The position numbers and the translations under genes were made by a program. The notes beneath the pieces were generated by a model. The model did no database searches. It was not told where the DNA came from and saw only the letters and a program-made list of their open reading frames with translations. 58,161 nucleotides of DNA from Chiloscyllium plagiosum. Taxonomy: Eukaryota. The stretch lies in contig NC_057718.1 in the NCBI RefSeq assembly GCF_004010195.1, positions 46,792,878 to 46,851,038 of the forward strand, read 5' to 3'. Shown here in pieces: positions 1 through 54,995 of the stretch (its first letter is position 1; each line of letters starts with the position of its first letter).

Positions 1-655
1 CCCCTTCAACCCACCCTCCCATCCTGGCACCCTCCCCTGCCACCGCAGGAATTGCAAAACCTGCGCCCACACCTCCTCCCTCACCTCTATCCAAGGCCCT
101 AAAGGAGCTTTCCACATCCATCAAAGTTTTACCTGCACATCCACCAATATCATTTATTGTATCCGTTGCTCCTAGTGCGGTCTCCTCTACATTGGGGAGA
201 CTGGATGCCTCCTAGCAGAGCGCTTTAGGGAACATCTCTGGGACAGCCGCACCAATCAACCATACCGCCCTGTGGCCCAACATTTTAACTCCCCCTCGCA
301 CTCTGCTGAAGACATGGAGGTCCTGGGCCTCCCTCACCACCAGACGCCTGGATGAAGAACGCCTCATCTTCCGCCTCTGAACACTTCAACCCCAGGGCAT
401 CAATGTGGACTTCAACAAGTTCCTCATTTCCCCTTACCCCACCTCACTCCAGTTCCAAACTTCCTGCTCAGCACTGTCCCCATGACTTGTCCTACCTGCC
501 TATCTTCTTTTCCACCCTCCTCTCATTTATCTCTTCACTCTTCAGGCTCTCTGCCTGTATTCCTGATGAAGGGCTTTTGCCCGAAATGTCGATTTTACTG
601 CTCCTCAGATGCTGCCTGAACTGCTGTGCTCTTCCAGCACCACTAATCCAGAATA
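1..655 (+). mobile_element. Penelope-like element 3' part (GIY-YIG endonuclease, Neptune-like Cys linker) with hammerhead-bearing terminus; pseudogenised
   Basis: Translates to PCHRRNCKTC...FTCTSTNIIYCIRCS*CGLLYIGETG..LAERFREH...PVAQHFN, with an in-frame stop. The terminus carries CTGATGA...GAAA at 563-590. Confidence 0.85.
563..590 (+). ncRNA. Minimal hammerhead ribozyme motif
   Basis: CTGATGA-A-GGGC-tttt-GCCC-GAAA-TGTC, with a CpG-decayed ACGT palindrome. Confidence 0.7.
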
Positions 656-717
656 TAATTTGCAGCACTTATCCTGACAATGTACTGACAGCATTGCATT
701 GTCATCTGGATTCTATT

Positions 718-1195
718 CATAGAAACATAGAAGATATGAGCATGATTAGGCTACTCAACCCCTCAAGCCTGTTCTGCCATTCCATATAATCATGGCTGAT
801 CACTGAGCTCAATCCCCTAAGCCCACCCAACCTCATATCTCTAGATCCCATTAGCCACAAGAGTTACATCCACCTCCTTCTTGAAAACATAATGTTTGGC
901 CTCAACCACAATCTGTGGTAGTGAAATCCAGAGGTTTACCCCTCTTTGAGTGAAGAAATTTCTCCTCATCTCAGACCTAAAAGGTTTGCCCCTTATCCTT
1001 AAATTATGACCTCATTCTTGGCTCCCCTACGATTAAGAATCTAACCTAAGTCCTGTTAGAATTTAGTAAGTTTCTATAAGATCCACCCTCATTCTTCTAA
1101 ACTCTGGTGAATACAATCCTAACTGACTCAATCTCTCCTTTTATGTCAGTTCTGCCATCCCAGGAATCAATGTGGTAAACCTTCGCTGAATTCCC
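718..1195 (-). mobile_element. CR1-type LINE 3' fragment
   Basis: CATAGAAACATAGAA tail repeat followed by decayed reverse-strand RT C-terminus (RRNFFTQR.V-like). Confidence 0.7.
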
Positions 1196-1474
1196 CTGAA
1201 ATGACCTCTCTAAACCACTCATACTTTTAACCTCCTTCACCTCTTCTAAGATCCTTCTGCAAAATTACTTTACATCAATGCCTCACCTCCAATCCTGCCC
1301 AATCCTGAATCCTTCCAATGTTAAAGGTACTGTGTCATCAAAGTTGCTGTGACAGAGAATCAATTTATTGTTTCCAGAAAATAATTTGCACAATGCAGGT
1401 AACCAGTTTATTAAGTTGTTGACATAGATTACTTGATTGAAGGGAAATTTCATAATTTTCATTGTTAGGTTTCC

Positions 1475-1630
1475 TGGAATTCCCTCCCTAAGGGCATTGT
1501 AGGTCCACTTTCAGTATGGGAACTGCAGCGGTTCAAGAAGGCAGGTTCCCACCACCCTCAAGGGTAACTAGCGACGGGTAATAAATACTGGCCAGGCAGC
1601 GACACCCATACCCCAGAAGTGAATTTAAAA
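1475..1630 (+). mobile_element. LINE/SINE 3' tail fragment (same family lies on the minus strand at about 11910-12580 and 56545-57035)
   Basis: Shared block CTGCAGCGGTTCAAGAAG...AATAAAT.CTGGCC ending in an A-rich tail. Confidence 0.6.
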
Positions 1631-3334
1631 AGTTATTGATAATGTCCAAAAAACCAAGTCTCCATGTTTATTCATCACTAAGTGGAGGACAAAAATAATC
1701 CTTTAAAACAACCCAATTCAGGCCTTAAAGCTTTAGCTATATTTTCTGTATTCCTTCTTGTGGTCAGTGACAAAACTAGACTGAAAATAAAATCTCTGGT
1801 GCAATTGTTCTCAAATTAACCACTGGACTTGTTGAGTCAAGAGACAGAAACAAATGCTATCAGGAGACACGGACGTGATAATACAAGCATGAAATAAATA
1901 CTGGTGTTTTGAAGTTATAAACAAAGCCTTGGAAACAATGGAGTAATTTAAGATTAAACACAGTGTTATAGACAAAAGAACCTTTTCTGAAAAACTGACA
2001 ATAACAGACTTTACAGAAGGAATTTTACTGGAGAAAGCTAAAGGGAGACAGCTTTCTGGGTGGATTCAAATTATGTGTTGGAATTTAGTTTCTGTAACAA
2101 ACATCATTAATTGAAGGAGCAGAGGGGGAGCCCACTTTGTTTCTGCTTGGGAGACCTGACACCATTTAAGCAAAATCAGGACAGCATCGGGCCTCCCCTT
2201 GACCAAGGCCAGGCTAGGGCAGAAATCTGGTCAGCCAGCCATTGCCAGCAGCACCATAGAGAGTGGTGGCTGCTGCTGATAATCTTCAGTGGCCTTCACA
2301 TGGCACTATCGCTGGATCCTGAGAGAGACACATAAGTGGGGTGGGTTTGGGGCACTGGGGAGGATACACCTGGCAAGAGGGAGGGCAAAGGGGTCAGATG
2401 TAAGGGCAAGGAGTGGCTTTCAGCAACCATTGTATTCCCTGACCCAGGCCCCTCAGTTGGGCATGTCGGCTTTCAGGAGGTTAGGGAGACTCATGCAAAT
2501 TCCTTATATCCACATCTCTCTCTCTTACACACACACGTGGTCACTCACTCAGTCTCTGACACTGGGAATGGCAGGTACTTCTGCCTGATTCCCACGGTCC
2601 TCCTGCCAAAATGCAGCTCCGCCAGGCACGACTAAATCTCACTTATTGTTTGAAACAAGAGTGCAGAATGCAGTCGGGTATTGTACTTGTAAAAGAAGGT
2701 TACTGTGGTCTGACTATGTAGTAAACTGGCCCTGAGATCTGAAAAAGGGTTAGAGAAAGAAACATGGTGGAGATTTTGGCTGTATCATGGAGTTAGCAGC
2801 ACTGCAGTCCAGGGAAGGAGACCCCAGAGAATTGTTTGGCCATCTTATAGAGAAGGAACCCAATTGATCGATGGTGTTAATAATTATCGTCATAATGTAC
2901 TCGAGCTCAACACTGGTAAAGCATTTACTTGCTGGGAAGAAATAACAAAGCTGCTACTGTTTCTTAATGATTACTTTCTTTCTCCTTCTCATGTTTTAAA
3001 ACTGTAACTATTTCCTGTCATAGTTTCAAACCAACCATAATCCCGTTAAGTACAACAACTTTTTGTGTGAGTCATCAATTTGTTTTCTTGTAATTTGCAA
3101 GTGAACTATAAATTTGATTGAGTGTTTTCAATCCTTATTGAGAAACTGCTCCAAGTGGAACAGTACAATTACTGACAATGAGACATTCATATGATTACCA
3201 TACAGAAGGTCACATTCTTTCACATGGTATTCAATGCTAACCATATGATTCTACAGCAGAGTAGCTTAATTGCCACTTCTGAGAATTTGATGACAGTACC
3301 CTTCTTGTCCTCCTCTATGGTGACATAAGTAGTG

Positions 3335-3649
3335 GGACTGGGACAACACATCTATCCTGGGACAGGCTAAGCAAAGACATGCCAGAGAATTCCTAGAGGC
3401 CTGGCACTCCAACCATGCCATAAACAAACACATAGATCTAGATGCCATCTATCAACCCCTCAGAAAATGAACAGGAAATGACATCACTACAAACCCCAAG
3501 AACCCCATCCAGGAGAAAGATATAAATAGAAAGCAGGAGACAACAACTTCACTTCACTTGGAGGTCGCCACTGATGATGTTACCTAGCCAGGTAATGAAA
3601 CGTCTGGATATCAAACCTACAGCTCAGCGAGCAAACCTATACCCTAAAT
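3335..3649 (+). mobile_element. 5'-truncated Penelope-like element (second family, Poseidon-like C-terminus) with 10-bp TSD
   Basis: Encodes DWDNTSILGQAKQRHAREFLEAWHS..AINKHIDLDAIYQPL. Flanked by ATAAGTAGTG at 3325-3334 and 3650-3659. Confidence 0.8.
3571..3604 (+). ncRNA. Hammerhead ribozyme motif, intact core
   Basis: cca-CTGATGA-T-GTTACCT-agcc-AGGTAAT-GAAA-CGTC-tgg: 7-bp stem II, GUC cleavage triplet and cca/tgg stem I. Confidence 0.8.
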
Positions 3650-3929
3650 ATAAGTAGTGTTCAGTTCAAAAAGGTTACTCTGTAGCATTGTTTGCAAGAG
3701 TAGATAATTATACACTGTAAATACGATTGCACAAGATAAAGTTAGTTCCAGGAACCGATAAATGTAGGACAGTAATGTATTATTGGACTGTAAAAACTTG
3801 GTAGCATAAAGTTTGAGTGCACCTCCACATCCAATAGGCTCACAAATATATCTTATCATAGGAGAAGGGAAGAGACATACTCAGAGCCAGGACTTAGGTG
3901 CAGGTGAGAAACATTCGACAGGGAAGAAA

Positions 3930-4372: not shown

Positions 4373-5547
4373 CATTAGGAGAAAGGGTTGGGAAATTGCT
4401 CGGGGAGCTAGCCAAGCTATTCAAGAGCAGAACAGACTGAAACTGTTCGTCCTGACTCCCTTGGAATGGTCTCTGGCATTTGGCAACACAAACTTTTGAA
4501 AACAACGATTTAACTTTTTGGTCTTTACTCGTTCCAAAATTTTTGTGTCATAACAAACTCTCATACAATACTTGAACCTTTCATTTTCATTTTTTGAAAA
4601 GCCTGTTTTGCATATTAATTTAATGGTTTTCAGAATATTTGAGGACACTGAGTAACCTCTAATTTTCAAGGTAGTGGTTTAGAACAAGGAGTTGGGATGA
4701 AAACCGTTACAAAGTGGTGATTTAAGAACACTGTGGGAGCCTTGGGTTTGTCATTCCTCAAAAGGAAGCTATAATTTTGAAGTTATAAATACCAACCTCT
4801 CTTCATAAAAGGGGTTGAAAATTTCCTTTGAAGGTTTAAAAGGAGCTGTATGTATGTCAGCCTAATTGAAGATTGTGTAGTGATCACAAAGAATGTCTGT
4901 GTCAGTTTGCCCTCCTCTAGCCTCTACCACATTATCTGAACTGTGCTAATCAATTGCAAACAACTTTATCGAAAATAGGTTTGTTTCTCACAAACAAACA
5001 AGCGCCTTGTGTTTGTGTGATTGGTTGCTGCCTAATTCTCTTATAATGCAGATATAACAGGACTTCCCAATGTGGGAGTCAAGATCCCAGGTGGGCCATA
5101 AGCTGAAGTGTTTGGGCCCCACGCTCGAAGGCAGCAATTGGCCACTACGATCTCCGAAAGAGTTATAACAGCTGTGCTCCACTCGAACAGTAACACCTTC
5201 CCAATTCTCAAGAGAGATCGCAGCAATTTTCAAGCCTCAAAACAGGGTCACACTAGGAAACAGATTGGGAAACATCAAGATAACATCTTAGAAGCAGTTT
5301 GTTAGAAGCATCTATGTGTAGCAAGATTGATGGAGATGTTCACTTTTGGCTCTTAATAAGCACAAAGTCACCAATCAGCAAATCAAAAGATCTGAAATAT
5401 TTTCACATGCAGACTGCATAATTCTAGACACCGTAGTCACTAAATAAGCAATCTTCTACAGTTCAGCAGTTCTGGATGGTGGAAAATTGGCCAGTTTTTT
5501 TTAACAGTGTGTGGATGATGATATAACTATGATATGAACATTCATTA

Positions 5548-5680
5548 GGAGATAGTGAGAACTGCAGATGCTGGAGAAGTCAGAGTCGATAAAGTGTTGT
5601 GCTGGAAAAACCACTGCAGGTCAGACAGCATCTGAAGAGCAAGATAGTCAATGTTTCGGGCTTAACCCTTCATCAGTCCT
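5548..5680 (-). mobile_element. Short Penelope-terminus insertion with degenerate hammerhead (5650-5676)
   Basis: The minus strand reads CTGATGA-A-GGGT-taa-GCCC-GAAA-CATT, followed by the GATGCTGTCTGACCTGC...TCCAGCATCTGCAG block shared with other copies. Confidence 0.7.
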
Positions 5681-6402
5681 GACCTGATATAGAAAGTCAT
5701 TTGTCTGAGAAGGGAGATGTGAGTCTGTACAAGTGGAGGTGTACTTAGCAGAAAATGTAGAATGTGCCATAAATAAAAGTGTTTTGATTAAACAACTGGG
5801 GTTGGACCTTGGTCACTCGTGGATAGGGAAAACTTGCCATGATCCAGAACATGCCACAATGAGGGACCCAAATATTATCCAAAGTGGAACCAAATCATAA
5901 AGGATGGTAGCAGCAGTGATGACACTAATCCAACAACAAATTGGGGCCACCAACAGAAACCCATGGCAAGAAACTGAAAATCTTCTTTAAAGATCAGAAA
6001 CCATACCTAGGTGAGAGGTATATAGCACCAGAGGAGTCTCTGCTTCTTGTAATATTGTTGGAAAACCCAAAGGTCCACAGAGAGGCCCATATTAGGAGTT
6101 GTGTTAAAAGCAATTCCAAAGGTATCAAACAGCATCTGGTTTGTACACTCAAGAGCAGATACACAAGCATGGTATATTCCTGTATGCGGTGGGATCCATT
6201 GTTGGTGGTATGTTTATGAGACAGGAGGGATTTCTCTGCAGATTTTCAAGCAATCCTAAAAGCATTCGATGAAGGACACAATTTGTGATCTCCTCAAGGG
6301 CTCCCAGAGAGTTACTTTTTGGTTTTCAGGGGCTCCCTTTGTATTCTCACCAATTTCTTTATGAGGTGATGCAGTCACATAATAACATAACATTCTGTAT
6401 TT

Positions 6403-7136
6403 TGTTATGGACCAGACCAGACCAGAACCGCTCAAAATATAGCTAGCCTAAATCCTAGCTTTTTCTTACTTTAAAGGTATATATGAGGTGTTGTGTTTCA
6501 GATGCAATTTGATTGGTCAAACTACTTGACATTAAGCAAATGTTGAGAGTGTGGTGCTGGAAAAGCACAGCAGGTCAGGCAGCATCCAAGGAGCAGGAAA
6601 ATCAACATTTTGGGCCGGAGCCCTTCATCCAATGTTAAGCAAAAGACAATTTATTCAAACACTATATTTAAAATACAACAAAAGAAAGGGGAACTTAGAA
6701 TAATCTAACTCGATTGGAAAACTTAACAGAATAATCGATATAGTAACTATTATGAATTAACTGTTCCAATATAGTAACATCCCATAAATACACCCTTGGT
6801 AAAAAGGCAAATTCAGAAAACAGATTGTTTCATGTGCTACTCCCATAGCAGAGAACCCCCAGCTTTTGGCTGTAACTGAGGGAGGGACAAAAAATAGCTT
6901 CCACCTCTTCAAGACCCCAACAGCAATTGCTAAAAGCTAAACTTAAAATCTCTGGTTCTGTGGGTGAGAACTTGACCACACCCATTCAGGCTGCTTCTAT
7001 TGTTCCAGCTTTTGAAAAAACACCCAAGTCTTCACAAGTTGTTTATTTTCTTGTAGACTGCTCATCTCCTGTTCCCAATCTCTTTCTAAAAGAAACAGGC
7101 CAAATATATATCTCTTAAAGCCACAGGATTGTCACA
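6403..7136 (-). mobile_element. Solo LTR with 4-bp TSD; contains a nested short Penelope-terminus copy at about 6543-6630
   Basis: Starts TGTTA and ends TCACA. ATTT lies on both sides (6399-6402, 7137-7140). The terminus CTGGTCCATAACA is shared with 22686-23342. Confidence 0.75.
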
Positions 7137-8024
7137 ATTTGTGTTGTCAGGGGGTATCAGGACTCTCATAGAAGGAGAATTAGAAAAATAGAGCAATATC
7201 TTTAGTAATATCAACTCCATTAATCCTAAAGCCACAAAGAAAATATTAATTCCCTAGTTACCACAGTATCTAAATTGATACGAGAAAAGAAACAAAAGTT
7301 AGCATAATTTTTTTTTCCTAAATTTAACTGTCACATACTTCTACACACGAAAAACCATCACACCAATCATGCCTTCCACAGACTAGTCACATCATGGCTA
7401 ATGCATTGCCACCCCAACATACAAAGCTGATATTTTAATTAGACAATTATCATCCTTTTTACTCTATCCTTGATTTTGAACTTTATTAAAATTTAAATTT
7501 AACAACTGACATAGCATTAATTGCAATAGCATCCACTATAGTATTCCCTGCAGGGTAGCTCCTGATCATATGTAGTATTAAGCAAGAGAAACCAAATTTA
7601 TTTGCAAATAATTCACCACCTCAGCGATTTCTGGTTTTCCTAGCTCCTAGTTAGCTGAGTGTTCCTTTATTGGCAGATTTGAAACAGTTCTCTCAACTTT
7701 TCCTCTCCCACCATGTTGCAGCCTTTTCCTCTCACTCAGCTCGTTGCAAGCTTCATATATATCTCTGATCCCTTTGCTGCCTTTTCATATATCCTGTTGT
7801 CCCCTTAATAACCTTCTTTAATAAATTTATAAGCCTCTATGAGATTGCTTTTTATTCTTCTAAACGAGAGAAAAAACAGAAAATCTCTCATCACAGGAAA
7901 AAACCTACCAGGAATCTGATTTGATGAAGAGGACTCAAAAGGTTAACTCTGCTTTCTTCCCACAGATGCTGCCAGACCTGCTGAGTTTCTCCAGCAATTT
8001 CTGTTTTTTTCTACCTGAAAACAG

Positions 8025-9410
8025 CCTGGTGAACCTCCACTGCAGACCCTCCATTGCAAGTATACCCTTCCTTATGGCAAGGGGACTAGAACTGCACATA
8101 ATACTCCAGATGTGGTCTCACTATTGCTCTATACAATTGATGCAAGGCTTATTTGCTCCTGTACTCAAATCCTCTTGTGACAAAGGCAGACACACAATAC
8201 AATATAATAGCTTTCAGTGATTTATGTATAAGGACACCTCAGTCCCTTTGGACATCAACACTTTCTGATCTCTCACAATTTAGGAACTACTTTGCACCTT
8301 TCTAGCTCCTGATATGATTTGAATTGTTTTGATTTATTGTCGCAAGTATCGAGATACAGTGAAAAGTTTTGTTTTGTGTGCTCTACAGGCTGATTGGACA
8401 TATAAAATGCATCAGATAGCAGAACAGAATGCAGAATATGGTGTTAAAGCCACAGAGAAGACACAGAGAGATAGATCAACATTTACATTGGAGAGGTCTG
8501 TTCAAAAGTCTAATAACTGTGGGGAACAAGCTGTTCTTGAATCTGTTGGTATGTGTATTCAAACCATTACATCTGCCTGACGGAAGAGGGTGGGAGAAAG
8601 TGTAACTGGGGTGGAAAAGATCTTTGATTATGTTGGTTGCTTTCCTGAGGCAGTGGGAAGTATAGTTGGAGTCAATGGATGGAAGGCTAGGATGGACTAG
8701 GCTGCGTTCACGACTCTCTGCAGTTTCTTGCAGTCTTGGAACGAGCAGTTGCTGAACCAAGCTGTGATGCATCAGGATGCTTTCTATAGTGCATCTATAA
8801 AAATTGGTAAGAGTCTTTGTGGACATGCTGAATTTCCTCAGCCTCCTGAAGAAGCAGAGATGTTGTTGTGCTTTCTCTACTGTCGTATCAACGTGGGTTG
8901 ACCAGGAAAGACTGGTGATCAACACTCCCAGGCACTTGATGCTTATGACCATCTCCACCTCAGTCTCACAGTTACCTACATTATACTTCAGCTTTTGCAC
9001 TCTTGTCCACTCATTTAATCTGTCTAAATCCCCTTCAAGTCTCCTTGCATTCTCCTCACAACTCACATTCCACTTTTTTTAGTATCATCTGCAAATATGG
9101 AAATATTACAAATGGCTTCCACATTCAAATCATTGATATCAATTGTAAACAGCTTAGGCCAAGCACTGGTCATTACAGTATGCCACTGGTCACTGCTTGC
9201 CAACTTGCGAAGGACCCATCTATTCCTACTTTCTCCTCACTACTAGTTGATCAATTCTTAATCTATGATAGCAAATTATTCCCAGTCCCATTCATTTTAA
9301 TTTTGTTTACTAACCTCCTCTTTGGGACTTTATCAAAACCCCCTGTGAAAATCCCAGTACCTCACATCCATTGGTTTCCCCTTACTGATTCTGTTAGTGA
9401 CATCCTCAAT
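8025..9410 (-). mobile_element. Old CR1-type LINE fragment interrupted by a Rex1/Babar fragment
   Basis: RLEGDLDRLNEW in ORF 8476-9066. A FADD-like region lies near 9085-9095. Confidence 0.65.
8318..8962 (-). mobile_element. Rex1/Babar-clade LINE 3' fragment
   Basis: LGV.I..LSWSTHV...KAQQHLCFFRRLRKF...LTNFYRCTIESIL...PLPSGR...TNRFKNSLFP. Homologous to 53966-55365. Confidence 0.75.
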
Positions 9411-9509
9411 GCCATACTGTTAAGGGCTTGGATGGGGAGGAATTTGTTAAATTGTGCCTACTGCTATTTGTCATTTATAGAAATGATGAGAATGAGAATT
9501 AAGGAGGCA

Positions 9510-18423: not shown

Positions 18424-18865
18424 ACAGTCATAGAGTCATAGCGATGTACAGCACAGAAACAGACCCTTCAATCCAACTCATCCATACCAACCAGATATCT
18501 CAACATAATCTAGTCCCATTTGCTAGCACTTGGCCCATATCCCTCTAAACCCTTCCTATTCATATACCCATCTAGATGCCTTTTAAATGCTATAATTGTA
18601 CCAGCCTCCACCACTTCATCTGGCAGCTCATTCCATACACGCACCACCCTCTGCGTGAAAACGTTGCCCCTTAGGTCTCTTTTATATCTTTCCCCTCTCA
18701 CCCTAAACCTATGCCCCCTGGTTCTGGACTCCCACACTCTAGGGAAGAGACCTTGATTATTTATCCTATCCATGCCCCTCCATGATTTTATAAACCTCTA
18801 TAAGGTCACACGCCAGCCTCTGACGCACCAGGGAAAACAGCACCAGCCTATTCAGCCTCTCCCTA
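18424..18865 (-). mobile_element. CR1/HER1 LINE 3' end (young)
   Basis: ORF 18510-18773 RTRGHRFRVRGERYKRDLRGNVFTQRVVRVWNELP, with a GTCATAGA tail repeat. Confidence 0.9.
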
Positions 18866-19250: not shown

Positions 19251-19738
19251 TGACAGAAGTGGGGACTGCGGATGCTAGAGATTAGAGTCAAGATTAGAGT
19301 AGTGCTGGAAAAGGACAGCAAGTCAGACAGCATCCGCAGAGCAGGAAAAATCGACATTTCAAGGTGCAGTGGGGAAAGACCACCATGTAACGTCTGCCTG
19401 CCAAAGAAGAACAGGGGGCCCACTCAGTAAGTGGGCTCTGCTGAAGCCTAAACTAAATATATGGATGGTAAACGTACAGACCTGTATATATGAATGATTA
19501 ATTCCGATCTCTGTATGTAAAGAAATGCAAGGTGCGCCTATGAATGGCACCACCAATTGTACAGATCATCAACATATTTTATGAATAAAGTATAGTTTTG
19601 AAATAAATAAAAAATCCGACGTTTTGGGCAAAAGCCCTTCATCAGGAATGAAGAAGGGCTTTTGCCCAAAACATCGCTTTACCTGCTCCTCTGATGCTGC
19701 CTGACCTGCTGTGCTTTTCCAGCACCCCGCTAATCTTG
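19251..19738 (-). mobile_element. Inverted (fold-back) Penelope-terminus element with 13-bp TSD, containing a nested Tx1 3' end
   Basis: ATGCAAATCACTG at 19238-19250 and 19739-19751. Two opposed decayed hammerhead motifs lie at 19618-19675. Confidence 0.8.
19361..19614 (+). mobile_element. Tx1-like LINE 3' end (last codons, 3' UTR, AATAAA, A tail)
   Basis: Clear similarity to 39257-39509 (AAGG.GCAGTGGGGAAAGACCACC.TGTAA...ATGAATAAAGTATA). Confidence 0.8.
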
Positions 19739-24059: not shown

Positions 24060-26980
24060 AGGATGAGGGAAGTGAATGTACCGTCGCCTGATTTGGAATG
24101 GCACAAAAATAGATGGGAAGTCAAATAGTGAGGAATACACAAAGAAAGAGAGTCCAGAGGGATGTAAACTGTTTGAGTGAGTGAGCAAAAACTTGGCAGA
24201 TGTAATATAATTGAGGGAAATGTGAGATCATGCATTTTGCCAGGAAGAATAAAAGAGCTGAATATTATTTAAATGGAGACATACTGCAGAAAGCTGAAAC
24301 ATGGATTGAGGGAATTGGGGGTTCCTAATGCATGACTCACAAAAAGCTAGCATCCAAGTTTGGCAGGTACTGGGGAAGTCAAACGGACTATTGGCCTTTG
24401 TTTCAAAGGGAATGGAGTATAAGTGTAGAGACGTCCAACAGAGTCATAGAGTCATATAGAATGGAAATAGACTCTTCGGTCCAACCAAGCCAGGCTGACC
24501 ATGTTCCCAAACTAAATTAAGCCAACCTGCCTGTGCCTGGTTCACATCTCTCCAAACCTTTCCTATTCATGTACTTAGAGTCATAGAGATGTACGGCATG
24601 GAAACAGACCCTTCCGTCCAACCCGTCCATGCCGACCAGGTATCCCAACCCAATCTAGTCCCACCTGCCAGCGCCCGGCCCATATCCCTCCAAACCTTAC
24701 CTATTCATATCCCTATCCAAATGCCTCTTAAAAGCTGCAATTGTACCAGCCTCCACCACATCCTCTGGCAGCTCATTCCATACACGTACCATCGTCTGCG
24801 TGAAAAAGTTGCCCCTTAGGTCTCTTTTATATCTTTCCCCTCTCACCCTAAATCTATGCCCAATGTCCTGTACAGCCACAACATGACCTCCCAACTCCTG
24901 TACTCAACACACTGACCAATAAAGGAAAGCATACCAAACACCTTCTTCACTATCCTATCTACCTGCGACTCCACTTTCAAGGAGCTATGAACCTGCACTC
25001 CAAGGTCTCTTTGTTCAGCAATACTCCCTAGGACCTTACCATTAAGTGTATAAGTCCTGCTAAAATTTACTTTCCCAAAATGCAGCACCTGGCATTTATC
25101 TGAATTAAACTCCATCTGCCACTTCTCAGCCCATTGGCCCATCCGGTCCAGATCCTGTTGTAATCTGAGGTAACCCAAGATTTTTAAATGTTATAACTGT
25201 ACCTGCATCTATCACTTCCTCTGGCAGTTCATTCTACACACCAACCACTCTCTCTGTAAAAATGTTTCCCCTTTTCAAATCATTCTCTTCTCAACTTAAA
25301 AGTATGCCTCTCTAGTTTTGAACTGACCCACCTTTGGGAAAAGACCTTTGCTTTTCACCTTAAGATTTTATAAACTTCAATAATGTCACCCCTCAATCTC
25401 TGATGCTCAAGTGAAAAAAGTTCCAGGCACAAGAAAGGATTGCAGATGTTGGAGATTAGAGTCTAGATTAGAGTGGTACTGGAAAAGCACAGAAGGTCAG
25501 GCAGCCTCTGAGGAGCAGGAAATCAACGTTTCAGACAGGACTCCTTCATCAGCCTTTCCAGTACCGCTCTAATCTTGAAAAAAGTTCTAGCCTATTTTGA
25601 TAACTCAAACCGTCCACTTCCAGCAGCATCCTGATAAATCTTTTCTGTAACCTCTCCAGTTTCGTAATATTCTTCCTATAATAAGACAACCAGAGCTGCA
25701 CACAGCACTCCAGAAAGTCCTCACCAACGTCCTGTACAACCTCAACATGGCATCTCAAGTCCTTTTCTCAAGCATGCTAAATGCCTTCTTATACACACTA
25801 TCTACATGAGATGCAAATTTTAAAGATTTATGTATCTGAACCCCTAGGTCTTTCTGTCCTACAACACTACCCAGGGTCCTACCATGAATTGTAAATGTCC
25901 TGCTCTTGTTTGTTTTACCAAACGCAATTCCTCTCATTTATCCAAAATAAACTCCATCTGAAATTCCTCAGCCATTGACCCAATTGCTCAAGATCCCTTT
26001 GTATTCTTAGATAACATTAATGTCCATTCTACCACTAATTTTGGTGTCATCTGCAAACTTACAAACCATGCCTCCTATATTCTCATTCAAATCATTTATA
26101 AAAATGACAAATAAAAGTGGACCTAGTACCATTCCCTGTGGAATACTGCTAGTCACAACCCTCCAGTCTGAAAAACAACCTTCCACCACCATCTGTCTCC
26201 AATCATAAGCCAATATTGTATCTAATTAACAAGCTCACACTGAATCCCATGTGATCTAACTTTACTAATTATTCTACAATGCAAAACCTTATCAAAGGCT
26301 TTACAGAAGTCGAATTAAACAACATCTACTGCTCTGCTTATTTCCTCAAAAAACTCAATCAAGTTTGTGAGGTATCATTCCCTCACGTAAAACCTTGCTA
26401 GCTATCCTTAATCAGTCCTTCCCTCTCCAATGCATGTAAATCCTATCTTTCAGAATCACTTCCAACAACTTACTCACTACCGATGTCTCCCTCACAGATC
26501 TATTGTTCCCAGCCTTCTCCTTATTGCTTTACTTAAATAAAGGCACAACATTAGCCACCCACTGGTCCCCCAACACCTCACCAATGGTATAAATAATACA
26601 AAGTTTCTGCTGGGGGACCTGCAATTTCCTCCCTAACTTCCCATGTCGCCATGAGATGCACTTGATTGTGTAAAACTATGCAAGACACTAGTCAGGCCAC
26701 ACCTGGAATACTATGAACAGTTGAGATCCTCTTACATAAGGAGAAGGGTGTTGGCATTGAAGGCAGTCCAGAGAAGGCTCACTAGATTGGCCACAAGTAT
26801 GGAGGGATTTTCTTATGAGCAAAAGTTGAGTAATTTGGGCCTTTACTCACTGGAGTTTAGAATAATGAGAGAAGACCTTATTGAAATATTATAAGATTCT
26901 TAGGGGGTTTGACGCAAAAGATGCGGAGAGGTTGTTTTGTCTTGTGGAATACAGGATATAATCTCAGAGTAAGGGATTGC
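24060..26980. mobile_element. Nested CR1 cluster: plus-strand outer element (about 24060-24436 and 26668-26980), minus-strand element (about 24440-26666), younger HER1 piece (about 24577-25177) and a Penelope-terminus insertion (about 25428-25575)
   Basis: RT motifs [18 protein letters not shown]...KFADDTK (ORF 26007-26213) and two GAGTCATA tails. The outer reading resumes at LVRPHLEY after 26668. The small insertion is flanked by TGAAAAAAGTTC.AG. Confidence 0.8.
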
Positions 26981-28291: not shown

Positions 28292-28408
28292 CAAAGTTAA
28301 AAATCATGCAATACCAGGTTATAGTCCAACAGGTTTATTTGGAAGTAGTAGCTTTCGGAGTGCTGCTCCTTCATCAGGTAGCTGTGGAGCAGGATCATAA
28401 AACACAGA
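28292..28408 (-). mobile_element. Short Penelope-terminus insertion (third family) with 11-bp TSD and hammerhead motif at 28349-28377
   Basis: TTCTATAATGA at 28281-28291 and 28409-28419. The minus strand reads CTGATGA-A-GGAG-cagca-CTCC-GAAA-GCTA. A related copy lies at about 40157-40262. Confidence 0.75.
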
Positions 28409-39509: not shown

Positions 39510-41056
39510 CTGTGGAGACTGAGAGTCTCAAACACCCAGGAGCAATACGAGTGTAATGTTGTAAATAGTTGTGCCTTAAGTGTCTACGTAGTTCAAAGAC
39601 AGCTGATTAGTATTTTTTCCTGGAAAAACGGTTTGTGTAATTAACATAACTTTGGAAAAACAATGCAGAGGAAGCCACTGTAAAGATCAGACTGCAGGCT
39701 TTCCTAGAATATCACTGAACACAACACACAGTGGTTTATACTTGTCTGCACCTGAGAGCGAGGCATCAGCTAGAGCCCAAAAATAGTCTCTATGGTTTGC
39801 CGCATGGCAATTTGGACGGAAACTCATACTCAGATTGAAAATACTAAAATTGCGGGGAGATAAAACATTTTGGAAGAGCTGCCCACAGGTGCTTTCAGAA
39901 AAAAAAAACCTCATGATGAAAGAAAGTCCCAAGATGGTAAATTACCAGGTTGAGAAAAGAACATAAATAAACAGAATCACTTTGGATTAGTTCTGGGAAA
40001 ACTGAATGTTTTCATTCATATGGAACATTGAAAAGTATATCTCTGAAGTGTTTTTTTTTAAAGTTAGGCTAGGAATAAGGAGAAAGGTATTCCATCCTGT
40101 GGTTTAAAATATTAAGGAGTATTATAAAGGTAGTTTTCAGCTAATCATCTTTTTATGTTAAAAAATACACACCAGGTTATCGTCCAACAGGTATATTTAG
40201 AAGCACTAGCAAAGATTTTTAACTTTGTGCACCCCAGTCCAACACCTGCTCCTCCACATCATAGCTACCATCTTTTTGCAGTCATTTGTTGTAGATATTT
40301 TAAAACGTGAAACCTTGACATGTCATTCTTTCAGCTACTGAATGGAAGGTTGAACTCCTTTTTAAAAATAGGCAGTCCCTAGAGGGAGCGTAACAATGAT
40401 TAAATGTTAGAAGAGGGCAATGCAAGGTTAGTTATGGGAGAATTAGTCCAGTGCAGTGCTCTTTTATCATGTGCTGTTGTATTGGTTGCTATAAGACAAC
40501 ACTTCAGAATGATTAGAGGCTGTCATTGTTGAGCTGCTGATGATAACATCAATGTCATTCCACAGAATAGACATGTTGTTCATCAGGACACGACGACTGG
40601 CATTGACACTGTGTTCTTTGGGCGACAGCTAATAACCATTCAGGTGACTGATTGTTATTCCTATCAGCTGGAGGAGTCAGCTGTGTTTCGCCTGCAGAGA
40701 ATCTCAAGCAGTTCCCAATGCAAATATGTTACTATGGTTACAGACTGCCCTCTCTGCTGCACCACACTGATTATTTTGGCCTGTCGCTGTCATACTTTTC
40801 TTGTGCTGCCTTGGTTGATCTTCCTATTTTCTATCTTGACTCCTCCTCTTCTGAATCTGGTCCTTTTGGCTCCACTATGTTAAGCTGTGGTATCTCGGCC
40901 ACATTCTCATTCTTCATGTATGAGCTCCAATTGTTGGAAAACATTCAATGGTGGCCAGATGATGGATATAAATTTACTGTACAATTTTATTTCATCCATT
41001 GTCCTGGCTGCTAGTCAGCTGCCTTCTTGAACTGCTACAATCCATCAGGTGTAACC

Positions 41057-41413
41057 CTTCTTCAGGACTGGGGTTGGATGTAACAGCAGCTGCGGATAAA
41101 GGGGTGGTGAGGGCAGAGTGGTGAAGTAGGGATAGGTGAAGACAGGCAGAGGGTACAACCTGGTTGGTCAATGGGAGAAATGAATCTGGTTGGTGGCAGG
41201 GAGGAGTGAAAGGTAAGGGGAGGAGCTAAGAAGGGAGTTGGGGGAAGAGAAAGGAGGTTATTTGAAAATGGAGAACTCTGCATTTTTTGTGTCAGGTGCA
41301 GGTACACTCATAGTTCAGGAATGTGATGAAGAGCTTATGCTCGAAACGTCGATTCTCCTGCTTCTCAGATGCTGCCTGACCAGCTGTGCTTTTCCAGCAC
41401 CACACTTTTTGAC
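41057..41413. mobile_element. Penelope-like 3' fragment (minus, about 41057-41280) and short terminus copy (plus, about 41318-41413) with hammerhead motif at 41323-41350
   Basis: gTGATGA-A-GAGC-ttat-GCTC-GAAA-CGTC-gatt, with a compensatory GAGC/GCTC stem II and the first core base altered. Confidence 0.7.
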
Positions 41414-45167: not shown

Positions 45168-45264
45168 TGTCGAAAAGTGTGGCGCTGGAAAAGCACAGCA
45201 AGTCAGGCAACATCTGAGGAGCAGCAGAATTGATGTTTTGGGCATAAGCTTTTCATCAGGAATG
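45168..45264 (-). mobile_element. Short Penelope-terminus copy with decayed hammerhead
   Basis: The minus strand reads CTGATGAAAAGCTTATGCCCAAAACATC, followed by the shared GATG.TGCCTGAC.TGCTGTGCTTTTCCAGC block. Confidence 0.7.
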
Positions 45265-45800
45265 ATTTGTGTCACTCCAGGGGAAGGACTACATTAACAG
45301 ATAAAGAGAGAAATAAAGAAATATGCCAACAGGGTTAGATGAAAAAGGGTGGGTGAAAGTTCATGCAGAACATAAGCACAAGCGAGAAATATGCGGCTAA
45401 ATGGCCTGTTTCTGAGCTTGAAATACCATCAAACAAGGCAACCGTGTAACCATATTCCAGATCCTGATAGATGTTAGTCAGTTTATATAATACTGCTCAC
45501 AATTTAAAATACAAGTTAAAAATTCAACAGAGTCAGAAGACTGATTTTTTCAACATTATGAAACTGCAAAATCATTGGCAAATCATACAGGTATTTTTCA
45601 GAATTGTAATGAATATTCATTGAGAACTCCTCCCTTGTTACTCTACAAATACGACATGAAATTTGAAGTTATCTATTATACAACTATATGCTAAATGATT
45701 TTGATGTAAATTTTGGAATCGGTCCATGTAATGCTCTTAGTGTTATTTGAGATTGTAACATAGGCCATCAGTGTAGCATTGTTACAGATTCCAATATCAG

Positions 45801-46289: not shown

Positions 46290-47402
46290 AGGTTAGATCT
46301 CATGGAATATAGCGAGATCGAGCCATTTGGATACAGATCTAGCTTTAAGGTAGAAGATAGAGGGTGGTGGTGGAGGGTTGTTTTTCAGACTGGAGGCCTG
46401 TGACCAGTGGAGTGCCACAAGGATCGGTGCTGGGTCCTCTACTTTTTGTCATTTACATAAATGATTTGGATGTGAGCATAAGAGGTATAGTTAGTAAATT
46501 TGCAGATGACACCAAAATTGGAGGTGCAGTGGACAGCGAAGAGGGTTACCTCAGATTACAATGGGATCTTGATCAGATGGGCTGAGAAGTGGCAGATGGA
46601 GTTTAATTCAGATCAATGCGAGGTGCTGCATTTTGGGAAAGTAAATCTTAGCAGGACTTATACACTTAATGGCAAGGTCCTAGGGAGTGTTGCTGAACAA
46701 AGAGACCTTGGAGTGCAGGTTCATAGCTCCTTGAAAGTGGAGTCACAGGTAGATAGGATAGTGAAGAAGGCATTTGATATGCTTTCCTTTATTGGTCAGA
46801 GTACTGAGTACAGGAGTTGGGAGGTCATGTTGCAGCTGTACAGGACATTGGTTAGGCCACTTTTCAAATATTCAAACATCCTATTGGAAAGATGTTGTGA
46901 AACTTGAAAGGGTTCAGAAAAGATTTACAAGAATGTTGCCAGGGTTGGAGGATTTGAGTTATAAGGAGAGGCTGAACAGGCTGGGGCTGTTTTCCCTGGA
47001 GCGTCGGAGGCTGAGGAGTGATCTTATAGAGGTTTATAAAATCACAAGGGGAATGAATAGGATAAATAGAAAAAGTCTCTTCCCCGCCGTGGGGGAGTTC
47101 AGTACCAGTTGGCATAGGTTTAAGGTGAGAGGGGAAACATACAAAAGAGACCTAAGGGGCAACTTTTTCACAGAGAGAGTGATACGTGTATGGAATGAGC
47201 TGCCAGAGGATGTGGTGGAGGCTGGTACAATTGCAACGTTTAAAAGGCATCTGGATGGGTATGTGAATAGGAAGGGTTTGGAGGGATATGGGCCGGGTGC
47301 TGGCAGGTGAGAGTAGATTGGGTTGGGATATCTGGTCAGGCTGGACGAGTTGGACCGAAGGGTCTGTTTCCATGTTGTACATCTCTATGACTCTATGACT
47401 CT
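46288..47402 (+). mobile_element. CR1/HER1 LINE 3' 1.1 kb (young)
   Basis: [22 protein letters not shown]...KFADDTKIGG through to the C-terminus, ending in a CTCTATGACTCTATGACTCT tail. Confidence 0.92.
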
Positions 47403-48127: not shown

Positions 48128-49046
48128 GATTAGAGTGGTGCTGGAAAAGCACAGCAGGTCAGGCAGCATCCGAGGAGTAGGAAAATCGACATTTCGGGCA
48201 TAAGCCCTTCATCAGGACTGAAGGCAGGGAGCCTCCAGGGTGGAGAGATAAATGGGAGGGGGTGGGCTGGGGAGAACGTAGCAAAGAGTACAATCGGTGG
48301 ATGGGGGTGGGGATGAAGGTGATAGGTCACAGAGGAAGGTGGAGTAGATAGGTGGGAAGGAAGATTGGCAGATAGGCTAGGTCATGAGGATGGTGCTGAG
48401 CTGGAAGGTTGGAACTGGGGTAAGGTGGGGGGAGGGGAAATGAGGAAACTGGTGAAGTCCACATTGATGGGAAAAAAGTGAGGACTGCAGATGCTGGAGA
48501 TCAGAGCTTAAAAATGTGTTGCTGGAAAAGTGCAGCAGGTCAGGCAGCATCAAAGGAGCAGGAGAATCGACGTTTTGGGCATAATTCATTCCTGAAGAAG
48601 GGCTTATGCCCGAAATGTCAATTCTCCTGCTCCTTTGATGCTGCCTGACCTGCTGCGCTTTTCCAGCAACACATTTTTAAGTCCACATTGATGCCCTGGG
48701 GTTGAAGTGTTCCGAGGCGGAAGATGAGGGGATGAAGATGATAGGTCAGAGAGGCCAGCCCCATCCACCTATTGTACTCTTTGCTACCTTCGCCCCTCTC
48801 TGACCTTTCACCTTAACCCCACCCCATACACCTATTGTACTCTTTGCTACCTTCTCCCCTGCCACAACCCCCTCCTATTTATCTCTCCACCCTGGAGGCT
48901 CCCTGCCTTCAGTCCTGTTGAAGGGCGTTTGCCCGAAACATCGATTTTCCTACTCCAAAGAATGCTGCCTGACCTGCTGTGCTTTTCCAGCACCACTCTA
49001 ATCTAGACTCTGATTTCCAGCATCTGCCGTCCTCACTATTGCCTAC
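48128..49046. mobile_element. Inverted Penelope-like element with 12-bp TSD (similar to 1-655)
   Basis: CCTTCTGTCACA at 48116-48127 and 49047-49058. The termini are opposed, with hammerhead motifs at 48188-48215 (minus) and about 48915-48942 (plus, core mutated). Confidence 0.8.
48470..48678. mobile_element. Fold-back Penelope-terminus mini-element nested in 48128-49046, 15-bp TSD
   Basis: AAGTCCACATTGATG at 48455-48469 and 48679-48693. Hammerhead CTGAAGA-A-GGGC-ttat-GCCC-GAAA-TGTC at 48592-48619. Confidence 0.85.
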
Positions 49047-52600: not shown

Positions 52601-53388
52601 TGCTGGGGAAGCTGAAAAATCTGAAGGTGGATAAATCACATGGATGGACGGATTACACCCCAGAGTTCTTAAGGATATAGCCGAGGAGATTGTGGAGGTA
52701 TTGGTGGTGATCTTTCAAGAATTACTGAAGTCAGAGGGGTCCCAGAGGACTGGAAAATGGCTAATGTAACACTCCAGTTTAAGACAGGAAACTATAGGCC
52801 AGCTAATCTGGCCTCGGTCACTGGTAAAATTTTAGAGTCTAATATTAAGGATGAGATTGCACAGTACTTGGAAGTGGCTGATAAAAAATGGCTGAGTCAA
52901 CTTGGCTTCGTCAAGTGGAGGTCATGCTTGACTTATCTGTTAGAATACTTCAAGGAGGTAACAAGTAAGTTAGACAAAGGAGATCCAGTTGACGTGATCT
53001 ATTTGGATTTTCAGAAGGCCTCTGACAGGATGCTACACTGGAGGCTGAAAAATAAGAGAAGAGCCCATGGTGTTAGGTACTGGCTTGGATAGAGGATTGG
53101 ATGACTGGCAGAAGGCAGAAATTGGGGATCAAAGGGTCTTTTTCAGGATGGCAGCCAGTGGTGTTTCACAGGGGTCAGTGTTGGGATCACAAATAATCAC
53201 GTTATACATTTACGAACTGAGGGCATGGCTTCTAAGTTTGCAGATGACACAAAGGCAGGTGGAGGAACAGGTGGTGTTGAGGAAGCAGGGGGTTACAGGA
53301 AGAAGGCAGGAGAATGGAGTTGAGAAAGACATCAGTCATGATTGAATACTCAATAGGCTGAATGGCCTAATTCTGCTCTACATATTAA
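49640..53388 (+). mobile_element. Long, heavily decayed CR1 LINE (ORF1 zinc finger/esterase, APE and RT remnants, internal deletions)
   Basis: C.TCMMWE and VHV.TND (ORF1); IIMGDF, EPTREQAILDLV and LGGSDH (APE); NYRP.NL, YLDFQKA and VSQGSVLG (RT). CR1 3' UTR at about 53340-53385. Confidence 0.8.
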
Positions 53389-54780
53389 GGTGTACATACA
53401 CACAACCCTGAGAAGACAGATATCCTTTTCAAGAATTCAAAATCACATGGCCTTATTTATCAGGCAATAAAACATTTGGTTTCACTTGTTGCTCATGTTT
53501 CTCAATGAATAAGAATGGATTTGATTCAAAAAGCTGATAAAGTTATATCATCTAATTAGTAAGTAAATAAAATAATTACATTTACTACAAAGCATGTATT
53601 GTATCTTGTATAACACTGACAGACAGGAAAAACTACCAGACCGGTGACCTTGTGGATATGATGTGATCGTGACAAAGCATGGAGTCCTATGCTCACTTGC
53701 AGTGGATTGGCATTACAGCGAGCATTTAAATCAATGGGAACATGTTGGGGACAACATCACCTTCCAATCTCCATTCTGATTGAGTCTTTGGTGAGATAAT
53801 CTATGAATGACTTTCGATCTTCATTATCAATTGTGGTGGTGAAGTGGGCAACAAATGTCCAATTAAGAGCCTCCTCCTACCATGGCTGGTATTAGCGCAA
53901 TGTTGGGCAAGAGGGCTTGTCGTGCATATAGCACACGGGTGACTTGCAGGCCCACAGGAATGATACCTTGAATTGAATTGAATTTATTGTAACATGTACC
54001 GAGGCATAGTGAAAAGCTTTGTCTTGCGAGTTAAGTAGCATAGATAAGTTTAATAATAGGTAAACAGCAGCAAAAACAAAAACACAGGCACAGGCAAATG
54101 TTAAGAATTTGAGTCCATTCAGTATTCTAACTACAGTAGGGTAGAAACTGTTTTGATACCGGTTGGAGTGTGTGTTCAGGCTTCTGTACCTTCTCACCAA
54201 TGGTAGAGGCTGTTGAAAAGCATTGCCAGGGTGGGATGGATCTTTGAAAATGCTGGCAGCCTTTCCTTGACAGCGGGTCTGGTAGATGGATTCTATAGAT
54301 GGGAGGTTGGCCTTTGTAATTGTCCAGGCTGAGTTCACCACTCTCTAACTGTCTCTGATCTTGAATGGTACAGTTGCCATGCCAGGTAGTGATACACCCA
54401 GACAGAATGCTCTCGATGGCGCACCTATAAAAGTTGGCAAGGGTATTCGCTGTCATGCCAAATTTCCTCAGCTGCCTAAGGAAGAAGAGACATTGTTGGT
54501 TCTTTGTAACCAGTGCATCCACGTAGAGTCCAAGAAAGCTTGTTGTGGATGCCCACTCCCAGGAGCTTCACACTCTCCACTCGTTCCATCTCTGTGCTGT
54601 TTATGTGTAGGGGGGTCATGAGTAACATCCTGCCAAAAGTCAATAATGAGTTCCTTGGTTTTGCTGGCATTGAGGACTAGGTTGTTCTCAGTGACCATTC
54701 TTCCAGGTCTTCCACCTCCTGTCTATAGTCTGTTTCATCACCATCTGAGATTTGACCAACTATGGTGGTGTCATCAGCGA

Positions 54781-54995
54781 GGAGAAAGTGAGGTCTGCAG
54801 ACGCTGGAGATCAAAGCTGAAACTTTATTGCTGGAACAGCACAGCAGGTCAGGCAGCATCCAGGGAACAGAAGATTCGACGTTTCGGGCACATGCCCGAA
54901 ATTTCCTGAAGAAGGGCATGTGCCCGAAACGTCGAATCTTCTGTTCCCTGGATGCTGCCTGACCTGCTGTGCTGTTCCAGCAATAAAGTTTCAGC
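54781..54995. mobile_element. Very young fold-back Penelope-terminus mini-element with 15-bp TSD
   Basis: TGGTGTCATCAGCGA at 54766-54780 and 54996-55010. Perfect 83-bp inverted arms at 54815-54897 and 54914-54996. Confidence 0.9.
54906..54933 (+). ncRNA. Minimal hammerhead ribozyme motif, intact core
   Basis: ttc-CTGAAGA-A-GGGC-atgt-GCCC-GAAA-CGTC-gaa, with GUC triplet, ttc/gaa stem I and palindromic ACGT for a dimeric stem III. Confidence 0.8.

Follow-up and report, generated by a model that had tools for sequence, protein, structure and literature searches.

Hammerhead motifs of a Chiloscyllium plagiosum window in truncated copies of Penelope-like elements

Hammerhead motifs in the window and in the genome

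The window, a stretch of 58,161 nucleotides of the Chiloscyllium plagiosum genome, is scattered with short motifs resembling hammerhead ribozymes, and the question it raises is what these motifs are and how so many copies came to be made. A first-pass annotation had listed 13 entries (14 positions, as 19618/19650 comprises two), and hammerhead-derived sequence was found at all 14. The minus-strand positions given there mark the cut-site end; the first core base lies at 5676, ~6631, 19645, 25552, 28377, 45259, and 48215, respectively. The motifs lie in copies of Penelope-like elements (PLEs) that are truncated and for the most part decayed and that come from three families, two Neptune-type and one Poseidon-type, and they belong to a known class, the minimal hammerheads (min-HHRs) in PLE pLTRs. 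The PLE insertions of the window and their hammerheads are as follows, including two (7922..8005 and 40157..40210) that were absent from the first-pass annotation.

1..654, plus strand: Neptune-type PLE of family A (subfamily A1), of which the window start leaves a 3′ fragment; holds a broken GIY-YIG end with a CxxxxCxxC linker and a pyrimidine-rich pLTR, and terminates at the tail-less site
559-594, plus strand: family-A1 hammerhead, core intact; predicted cut after 590
3335..3647, plus strand: family B, Poseidon-type PLE, of which a 3′ fragment with the ORF C-terminus and a TATA-like box is present
3568-3607, plus strand: family-B hammerhead, intact; predicted cut after 3604
3323-3334 and 3648-3659: TSD of the family-B fragment
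5546..5682, minus strand: old, tailed family-A stub; core letters unchanged, stems I and III disrupted, TSD not found
6541..6634, minus strand: tail-less family-A stub; core start and G12 lost, TSD of 9 bp
7922..8005, plus strand: decayed copy of a more diverged family-A relative
19251..19738, both strands: single head-to-head family-A insertion, TSD of 13 bp; minus arm with tail, interrupted by ~250 bp of unrelated sequence (19361-19611); G12 lost in both arms (sites 19618 and 19650)
25427..25575, minus strand: tailed family-A stub accompanied by a short inverted 3′-end stub; stem II decayed, TSD of 15 bp
28292..28408, minus strand: family-C (Neptune-type) stub; core (28377) and stem II intact, stem I broken, TSD of 11 bp
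40157..40210, minus strand: family-C 3′ fragment without a core
41324..41410, plus strand: family-A stub that lacks the first core base; belongs to the GAGC/GCTC subfamily
45173..45265, minus strand: family-A stub starting ~5 nt before the core; G12 lost
48128..49044, both strands: head-to-head family-A insertion, TSD of 14 bp
48128-48729, minus arm of the preceding: ORF end, pLTR, and intact hammerhead (core 48215), without tail
~48733-49044, plus arm of the same insertion: core 48915 with A6 lost, tail present
48470..48676, nested in 48128..49044: younger palindromic family-A (A2) insertion, TSD of 15-17 bp; the core (48592) is intact and the first pair of stem I is broken; one long hairpin is the predicted fold
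54781..54993, both strands: palindromic family-A (A3) insertion, TSD of 14-17 bp, tail solely on the minus arm
54903-54936: A3 hammerhead, intact; predicted cut after 54933; in the predicted fold it is enclosed by a 96-bp hairpin

Many of the copies had been described as TSD-flanked, and a TSD of 9-17 bp was found for eight of the 12 window insertions tested. A descriptor for the type I core of PLE min-HHRs (CUGANGA, zero or one extra base, a stem II of at least 4 bp, and GAAA-NN-UH) matched seven of the 14 sites (563, 3571, 5676, 28377, 48215, 48592, and 54906), and the earlier statement that the core is constant was therefore wrong. Three of these seven (3571, 48215, and 54906) have a paired stem III palindrome together with at least three contiguous stem I pairs; site 563 has a weak stem I, as is usual for its subfamily, and in all about four of the 14 sites keep all stems. 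The other seven are broken: G12 has become A at a CpG at 6605, 19618, 19650, and 45232, the core start is missing at 6605, 19650, and 41323, A6 has become U at 48915, and stem II has decayed at 25525. No intact partner of the same family and strand lies near any window copy.

In a genome sample of 1,285,576 non-N bases, the descriptor gave 119 hits, whereas the three shuffled controls yielded 0, 0, and 1 and the reversed sequence 2, and three exact patterns matched 112,772 times across the genome with no match for the reversed-pattern controls, indicating that the motif is not due to chance. An Rfam search returned no match to the hammerhead models at E up to 1, and the four Rfam hits obtained were discarded as palindrome artefacts. 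With 262 family-A copies in 1.29 Mb, or ~1 per 5 kb, the density in the window is typical of the genome, and the very high copy number that had been anticipated on this basis is supported, as extrapolation from the sampling suggests roughly a million copies. The same 1.29 Mb held 36 fully paired motifs (~100,000 when extrapolated) and 52 inverted pairs (~140,000 near-perfect hairpins of ~90 bp when extrapolated).

Families and layout of the elements

The assignment to minimal type I hammerheads of PLEs from three families was borne out, with 12 of the 14 window sites in family A, one in B (3571), and one in C (28377). Each family has its own stem II (GGGC/GCCC in A, GTTACCT/AGGTAAT in B, GGAG/CTCC in C), and the switch between ACGT and AGCT in stem III is likewise a difference between families. 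Covariation, as proposed earlier, is real between families, and GAGC/GCTC is a truly compensatory subfamily of A, with 298 double changes observed where the single changes (1,297 and 988) on 84,619 predict 15, but the other differences amount to a handful of evolutionary events. Stem I, on which the first-pass annotation had not remarked, also covaries (AUUC/GAAU, AGUC/GAUU, CCA/UGG, GCA/UGC, and CAC/GUG). A MAFFT alignment of 14 copies misplaced family C, so the evidence for covariation comes from the pattern counts, the descriptor hits, and the common haplotypes.

The common haplotypes have an unpaired base after A9, a G10.1-C11.1 pair, a palindromic 15.2-16.2, and a short end-closing helix I, the exceptions being B1, with G-U at 10.1-11.1, and the dominant subfamilies A1 and A2, in which stem I is weak and helix I holds a U-U mismatch. 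All of these features, along with the type I core, are shared with the metazoan PLE pLTR min-HHRs (Cervera and De la Pena 2014, PMC4209133), which also occur as many families per genome, mostly in single truncated copies, with occasional pairs on opposite strands separated by 100-700 bp. Stem II measures 4-5 bp in families A and C, compared to 7-8 bp in Schistosoma (PMC4209133), and is longest in B. The 112,772 exact matches in the shark compare with ~4,000 copies in coelacanth and ~9,000 in Xenopus, counted by another method (PMC4209133); the class is known, but its numbers here greatly exceed those of the genomes surveyed in 2014. In the one supplement of that study that was searched, no shark term occurs.

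Both A and C were assigned to Neptune from a CX2-5CxxC linker between RT and GIY-YIG. A single ORF with RT followed by GIY-YIG, as in EN+ PLEs, was read in broken copies of family A (L034 and L045) and of family C (L293, upstream of the motif), the window itself opens with a GIY-YIG end, and family-A loci gave weak Pfam matches to RVT_1 and GIY-YIG, below the gathering cut-offs. In family B, where GIY-YIG is the only part of the ORF that was read, a C-terminal GIY-YIG without the linker motif lies upstream of the hammerhead (loci L085 and L056), as in Penelope/Poseidon elements. We take the family-B C-terminus to resemble that of Poseidon.

Overlapping natural fragments were assembled into a common layout, no complete intact element having been recovered: pLTR, hammerhead, end site 1, tail, end site 2, ORF (RT, GIY-YIG), and pLTR again, with end site 1 at ~+92 and end site 2 at ~+127 to +135 from the first core base. 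The hammerhead is thus located in the pLTR, and in family A the pLTR at both ORF ends, the tail, and inverted 5′-truncated copies were all found. The tail followed by the ORF start, with a reach back into the hammerhead region, was seen at four of 30 loci, and in A1 the first ATG behind the tail comes ~40 nt after it. The available portions of Craig et al. (2021, PMC8557442) and Arkhipova et al. (2013, PMC3846280) describe the same C-terminal GIY-YIG, a linker confined to Neptune, heavy 5′ truncation, an inverted copy at the 5′ end, a 30-40-bp tail at one end, and TSDs.

Where the short copies begin and end

Copies terminate at one of the two end sites, and the short copies, which are exactly the hammerhead-to-tail stretch that precedes the ORF in coding elements, end before the sequence that follows the tail. 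Head-to-head pairs within 300 nt numbered 52 among the 262 family-A copies, with the tail on exactly one arm in 49 of the 52 and on both arms in none; a TSD of at least 9 bp flanked 27 of 39 pairs, compared to 0 of 115 shuffled pairings, and the TSDs of close pairs were mostly 12-17 bp. Inverted pairs were also present in families B and C. Among 41 lone stubs, most flanks were unlike those of other copies, and a TSD was found in nine, compared to one of 41 controls.

Two adjacent internal RT start sites also bracket the tail of the Anolis Poseidon element PAc, the sole PLE tested in vitro, for which both strands of the DNA undergo cutting and extension, reverse transcription depends on the sequence behind the tail, and RNA reads do not terminate at the cut site of the hammerhead (Frangieh et al. 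2024, PMC11167929). The PAc ORF starts in stem II, whereas in A1 it would begin behind the tail, and the rule of one tail per pair implies different sites for each strand, whereas PAc in vitro displays no strand difference (PMC11167929).

For the 5′ ends, 18 of the 262 family-A copies were dropped as lying beside N or block ends, and 117 of the other 244 passed a similarity filter for young copies. In 65 of these 117, the 5′ end fell at -10 to +10 of the core start, and the end rate at this hotspot was 4.4% per nt, compared to 0.5-0.7% on either side, with ends spread from -8 to +16 rather than placed at a single base. Tailed (28/59) and tail-less (37/58) copies ended at the hotspot alike, indicating that the stop is tied to position and not to length; a fixed-length (processivity) origin of the stubs was rejected on the same ground. 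A cleavage-site origin was rejected because the ends are not at +29 (3/117 at +25 to +34). A splice acceptor as the boundary was also discarded: some subfamilies have an AG at about -18 to -26, but only 1/117 ends fell at -16 to -30, and the RNA reads contained no splice joint. Family C has a similar pile-up (24/41 at -11 to +5) that is absent from family B (2/35 within 12 nt). Random 5′ truncation, which had been offered as the alternative to a separate family, does not quite fit either, since the 5′ ends in A and C pile up at the 5′ edge of the hammerhead.

Many of these ends carry an extra G. Just before the -3 A, which is the first base of stem I and sits inside an initiator-like TCATTC, the first 100 matches listed of 5,724 had 65 G, 20 A, and 15 T, with ~26% G expected. 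In a separate local set, G preceded -3 in 11/15, -2 in 4/20, and -4 in 3/12; it also preceded -3 in 10 of 17 loci without an inverted arm and was frequent before +1 (6/7). The G could alternatively come from the inverted arm in 5-6 of 21 cases and from the TSD in four of 21. Family C had an extra G at -5/-4 in four of its few junctions (4/5). A 5′ G would mark a copied cap, although no passage stating this was found in the literature searched. Taken together, the capped RNA of the Neptune-type elements likely begins at the first base of the ribozyme. In D. virilis, the start site is 46 bp before an intron and not at the hammerhead (PMC2377424), and no counterpart of a hotspot with extra G, confined here to the Neptune-type families, was found in the available portions of PMC8557442 and PMC3846280. 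In family B, which has a TATA-like box and also a TCACT motif ~14-17 nt ahead of the core, the pile-up is nonetheless lacking, indicating that running off at a start site is not the general rule.

The short copies are probably truncated or inverted insertions of coding PLEs, dead ends arising from internal RT starts (a status taken from one in-vitro study of a Poseidon element), with Neptune copies running off at a capped 5′ end at stem I. Reverse transcription would start at end site 1 or 2, and the endonuclease would nick both strands ~14 bp apart; both nicks may then prime, one per end site, giving palindromes. In families A and C, reverse transcription likely reaches the capped 5′ end of the RNA and runs off there, with the -3 A as putative transcription start and the extra G as the presumed copy of the cap, while long copies may derive from RNA that is read through, tandem, or circular. 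If the ribozyme is active, cutting would require a dimer or the help of a protein and would take off a capped leader of 32 nt, and the genomic stubs would afterwards decay neutrally.

The same elements could also give a pile-up if reverse transcriptase paused or fell off at the hammerhead, or at the start of a C/T-rich tract, rather than at an RNA 5′ end, which we regard as unlikely. The C-rich sequence upstream of the core in A and C, and not in B, fits the contrast between families, as the spread of ends over about 20 nt and the clustering of template jumps in the C/T-rich tract fit a pause, but the stop rate is back to 0.5% per nt inside the tract, the family with the longest stem II is the one without a pile-up, and G is enriched before -3 but not before -2 or -4. 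Furthermore, of eight second-round copies following a jump, two stop at the hotspot and six pass it (p ~0.025 vs a plain pause).

Other origins, template jumps, and RNA

The first-pass annotation had proposed that the 90-220-bp copies are an independent, non-autonomous ribozyme-bearing family copied by PLE proteins. Most copies are indeed short, with defined 3′ ends and often TSDs, A5 was represented by short copies alone (4/4 in the sample), and pLTRs can act in trans in rotifers according to the available part of PMC3846280. This proposal is not supported and is quite improbable, as A1, A1b, A2, A3, and A4 each contain both long copies (>100 nt upstream) and short ones, and the GIY-YIG end is present in long copies belonging to A1, A2, and A4-like subfamilies. 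Junctions and flanks also vary between copies, half of the window motifs have dead cores, and the stubs stop at RT start sites, without the downstream sequence that is needed in vitro.

Hammerhead-cut or circularised RNA as the main template, with the ribozyme shaping the stubs, has only a very slight probability. Long copies and tandems would be accounted for by a circle, as PMC4209133 suggested, and compensatory change between families keeps the stems, implying that the motif mattered in active elements. Against this, the cut site is not enriched for ends, uncut RNA is the main substrate in the Anolis element (PMC11167929), and successive jumps within one locus (L271/L272) have different junctions, unlike repeated passes of one circle. 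That the host kept many copies as working ribozymes cutting host transcripts is barely credible, for although fully paired motifs are abundant and reads of a public RNA run cover the motif, the catalytic G12 decays at the CpG rate (differing in 13% of 112 copies, compared to 11-25% at other CpG positions and 0-5% elsewhere), monomers of this type are silent in vitro (PMC4209133), and ~40% of family-A copies, in inverted pairs, are predicted to bury the motif in a hairpin. In that run, a single-cell polyA library, read depth was about equal on both strands, and no pile-up of molecule starts or ends was seen, the library type making this a weak test; a second raw run gave no reads. None of the listed sequence records holding the motif is on record as RNA.

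Micro-tandems produced by template jumps were found at 28 of 30 loci elsewhere in the genome. They are short, with the ORF deleted and unique junctions, and have no counterpart in the available portions of PMC8557442 and PMC3846280. Animal non-LTR retrozymes (Li et al. 2026, bioRxiv 10.64898/2026.07.22.740005) are pLTR-derived units of a few hundred bases with direct tandem type I hammerheads, a description that the micro-tandems fit, whereas the window copies are monomers or inverted pairs. Direct tandems of complete type I hammerheads were absent from the window and present, by a loose pattern, in at most five of the 30 tail-ORF loci elsewhere. The micro-tandems resemble nascent retrozymes; no amplification of them as families was seen.

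For the Neptune elements, we see an even chance that the hammerhead forms a capped mRNA leader whose cleavage acts as a decapping or circularisation switch, that twin priming from the two internal start sites on this leader made hundreds of thousands of stubs and long hairpins, and that jumps from the pLTR to the ORF start created ~150-620-nt direct tandems with two hammerheads and the protein-binding region, the birth of animal retrozymes. The ~140,000 extrapolated hairpins could, in addition, supply host transcripts with much double-stranded RNA. The value of these copies is mechanistic, bearing on the PLE copying cycle and the role of the hammerhead: the million or so insertions form a fossil record in which can be read two fixed start sites, a single tail in each inverted pair, a cut stagger of ~14 bp, an RNA that likely starts, capped, where the ribozyme has its first base, and tandems made by jumps.

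Hammerhead motifs and the elements that carry them

Hammerhead-derived sequence was found by a regular-expression scan and site-by-site inspection at all 14 window positions listed in the first-pass annotation, 12 belonging to family A and one each to families B (3571) and C (28377), three Penelope-like element (PLE) families. A structural descriptor retained 7 of the 14; three of these combined a paired stem III palindrome with at least three contiguous stem I pairs, and site 563 is a fourth, its weak stem I being normal for its subfamily. The remaining listed sites have lost G12, A6, the core start or stem II. Across 1,285,576 non-N bases in 19 blocks (the window's own block plus 18 at arbitrary places), the descriptor identified 119 cores, compared with 0, 0 and 1 in shuffles and 2 in reversed sequence. 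Rfam returned no hammerhead match.

The proposed Penelope derivation in three families held, with RT and GIY-YIG pieces upstream of A and C and GIY-YIG upstream of B, and the PLE identity of the hammerhead-bearing copies is close to certain. The window opens with a GIY-YIG domain end after a CxxxxCxxC motif; next come a pyrimidine-rich repeat and, at 563, the hammerhead. This GIY-YIG end is present in long copies of several A subfamilies. Walking upstream in the genome led to RT pieces and then to an ORF start immediately 3′ of a hammerhead and its tail (the short segment 3′ of the hammerhead); none of the elements met in these genome walks was both complete and intact. Family C has RT, linker motif and GIY-YIG upstream, and the GIY-YIG of family B lacks the linker; by the linker criterion presented in PMC8557442, A and C would be Neptune-type and B Poseidon-type. 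The suggestion of an independent non-autonomous family was unsupported. In subfamily A1 (window 560-654, L184, L186), one frame runs across hammerhead and tail and on into the ORF with no stop, and A2 has a stop in that frame. Families B and C have TATA-like boxes (TATAAA/GATAAA) 34-52 nt 5′ of the core, and family A subfamilies retain TTATCT about 30-36 nt 5′ of it (L286:1715-1815, L013:1855-1950, L052, L202).

Compensatory change in stem II was upheld in part: the variants originally listed are family traits, and one compensatory change occurs within family A, where both partners of a pair were changed in 298 copies against 15 expected from single changes, nearly all of the double changes listed sharing a single subfamily haplotype. 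Between families, covariation is seen in stem I as well. Inserted family-A copies show no sign of maintenance: among 112 chosen for reaching the core start, 13% have another base at G12, similar to other CpG positions.

Broken frames resembling non-LTR retrotransposons, presumably CR1/L2-like and L1/Tx1-like, occupy much of the window outside the PLE copies, and no host gene was identified in the window.

Other features of the window
8476-10400: broken frames, non-LTR-retrotransposon-like
18430-18780: broken frames, non-LTR-retrotransposon-like
24440-25430: broken frames, non-LTR-retrotransposon-like
29690-35150: broken frames, non-LTR-retrotransposon-like
37750-39370: broken frames, non-LTR-retrotransposon-like
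38219-39183: N gap
46490-47400: broken frames, non-LTR-retrotransposon-like
53890-55400: broken frames, non-LTR-retrotransposon-like

Abundance, transcripts and published hammerheads

Exact patterns matched the 3.56-Gb genome 84,619 times for A, 4,357 for B and 23,796 for C, with no matches for reversed-pattern controls genome-wide. Profile searches of the sampled blocks found 262 copies of A, 39 of B and 49 of C, and extrapolation from this 0.04% of the genome gives roughly a million copies, in line with the very high copy number predicted, the core being descriptor-intact in about 330,000 and every stem present in about 100,000. Family-A sequence also occurs at 90% identity or more in contigs from sequencing runs of two other organisms, indicating that the family is common to relatives. 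In about 2% of one single-cell polyA run, read depth over the region of the short truncated copies (stubs) was several hundred fold on each strand, compared with 3-7 fold at the ORF start. Those reads showed neither a pile-up of ends nor splice joints, which fits passive transcription of embedded copies.

Minimal PLE hammerheads are real here and of a kind already known: PMC4209133 describes them in PLE repeats, with dimer architecture, low in vitro activity and genome-wide spread, and shark terms were absent from the one supplement of that paper searched. PLE expansion in whale shark introns is described in bioRxiv 10.1101/443036; PMC2377424, PMC6155905 and PMC6765202 served for further comparison. 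Searches of openly accessible papers found neither shark hammerheads nor a hammerhead 5′-end hotspot.

Insertion anatomy and 5′ ends

Positions are numbered from the first C of CUGANGA (C3) as +1, with the preceding base as 0 and the A of ATTC as −3; the predicted family-A cut follows +28. Family-A copies end 3′ at about +92 or, after the tail, at about +127 to +135. Of the 262, 104 form 52 head-to-head pairs no more than 300 nt apart, with the tail on exactly one arm in 49, on neither in 3 and on both in none. Target-site duplications (TSDs) of 9-17 bp surround 27/39 pairs and 0/115 controls; consistent with the TSD flanking first noted, 8 of 12 window insertions tested have them. The pairs match the inverted PLE copies with a one-sided tail described in PMC8557442 and PMC3846280, and ends and pairs together agree with the in vitro results of PMC11167929, in which reverse transcription began at two internal sites and both strands were cut. 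We infer twin priming, with one nick per start site. Nested insertions were also seen, including a copy at 48470-48676 inside the PLE insertion 48128-49044 and PLEs within PLEs, tails included, at L066 and L061. Unrelated sequence of about 250 bp, A-rich at one end, interrupts a minus arm at 19361-19611, immediately past the cut site of its hammerhead, and no TSD was found around this insert.

After removal of 18 copies adjoining gaps, 117 family-A copies passed a similarity filter, and 65 of these end 5′ at −10 to +10 (4.4% per nt, versus 0.5-0.7% either side), with only 3/117 at +25 to +34. The pile-up was present in tailed and tail-less, paired and lone copies, and the flanks of lone stubs are mostly unrelated. 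Family C behaves the same way (24/41) and family B lacks the pile-up (2/35). Among the first 100 matches listed of 5,724 A2 copies with a −4 base other than the inherited C, G occurred in 65, A in 20 and T in 15, with about 26% G expected. In a local set, G stood at the junction in 11/15 copies ending at −3 versus 4/20 at −2 and 3/12 at −4, and in 10/17 loci without an inverted arm. Against this, several extra G's are explicable by the inverted arm or lie within the TSD, and G is common before +1 as well. Stem I begins with the −3 A, and this A lies within TCATTC or TCAGTC, which we take to match the initiator consensus. An added 5′ G may be a copied cap, a reading for which no passage was found in the literature searched. 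The −3 A would then be the RNA start and the added G a cap copy, a start-site mechanism that we consider fairly probable for Neptune-type 5′ ends.

Micro-tandems

An exact pattern spanning tail and ORF start matched the genome 867 times. In 28 of the first 30 matches listed (L253-L282), an ORF piece of 20-480 nt is joined directly to a same-strand piece of the PLE end repeat (pLTR) whose start lies anywhere from −245 to +62, in most cases at −30 to −90, every junction among the 28 loci being different. The tandem units are about 150-620 nt long, and two loosely defined cores lie no more than 700 nt apart in 5 of the first 30 matches listed. L271/L272 is a single locus with two different jumps, and in L282 a 34-nt ORF piece is repeated about ten times. 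We read the micro-tandems as probable template jumps between C/T-rich stretches. They may instead have arisen by deletion at the DNA level, and their excess may reflect assembly bias, as gaps may deplete full-length copies. Of 8 post-jump copies reaching the hammerhead edge, 2 end at it, a result that speaks mildly for two kinds of template rather than a plain pause. Micro-tandems are the sole arrangement seen that could form a cis dimer while keeping the region behind the tail, and they thus fit the retrozyme origin proposed in bioRxiv 10.64898/2026.07.22.740005, whose supplements include one chondrichthyan genome.
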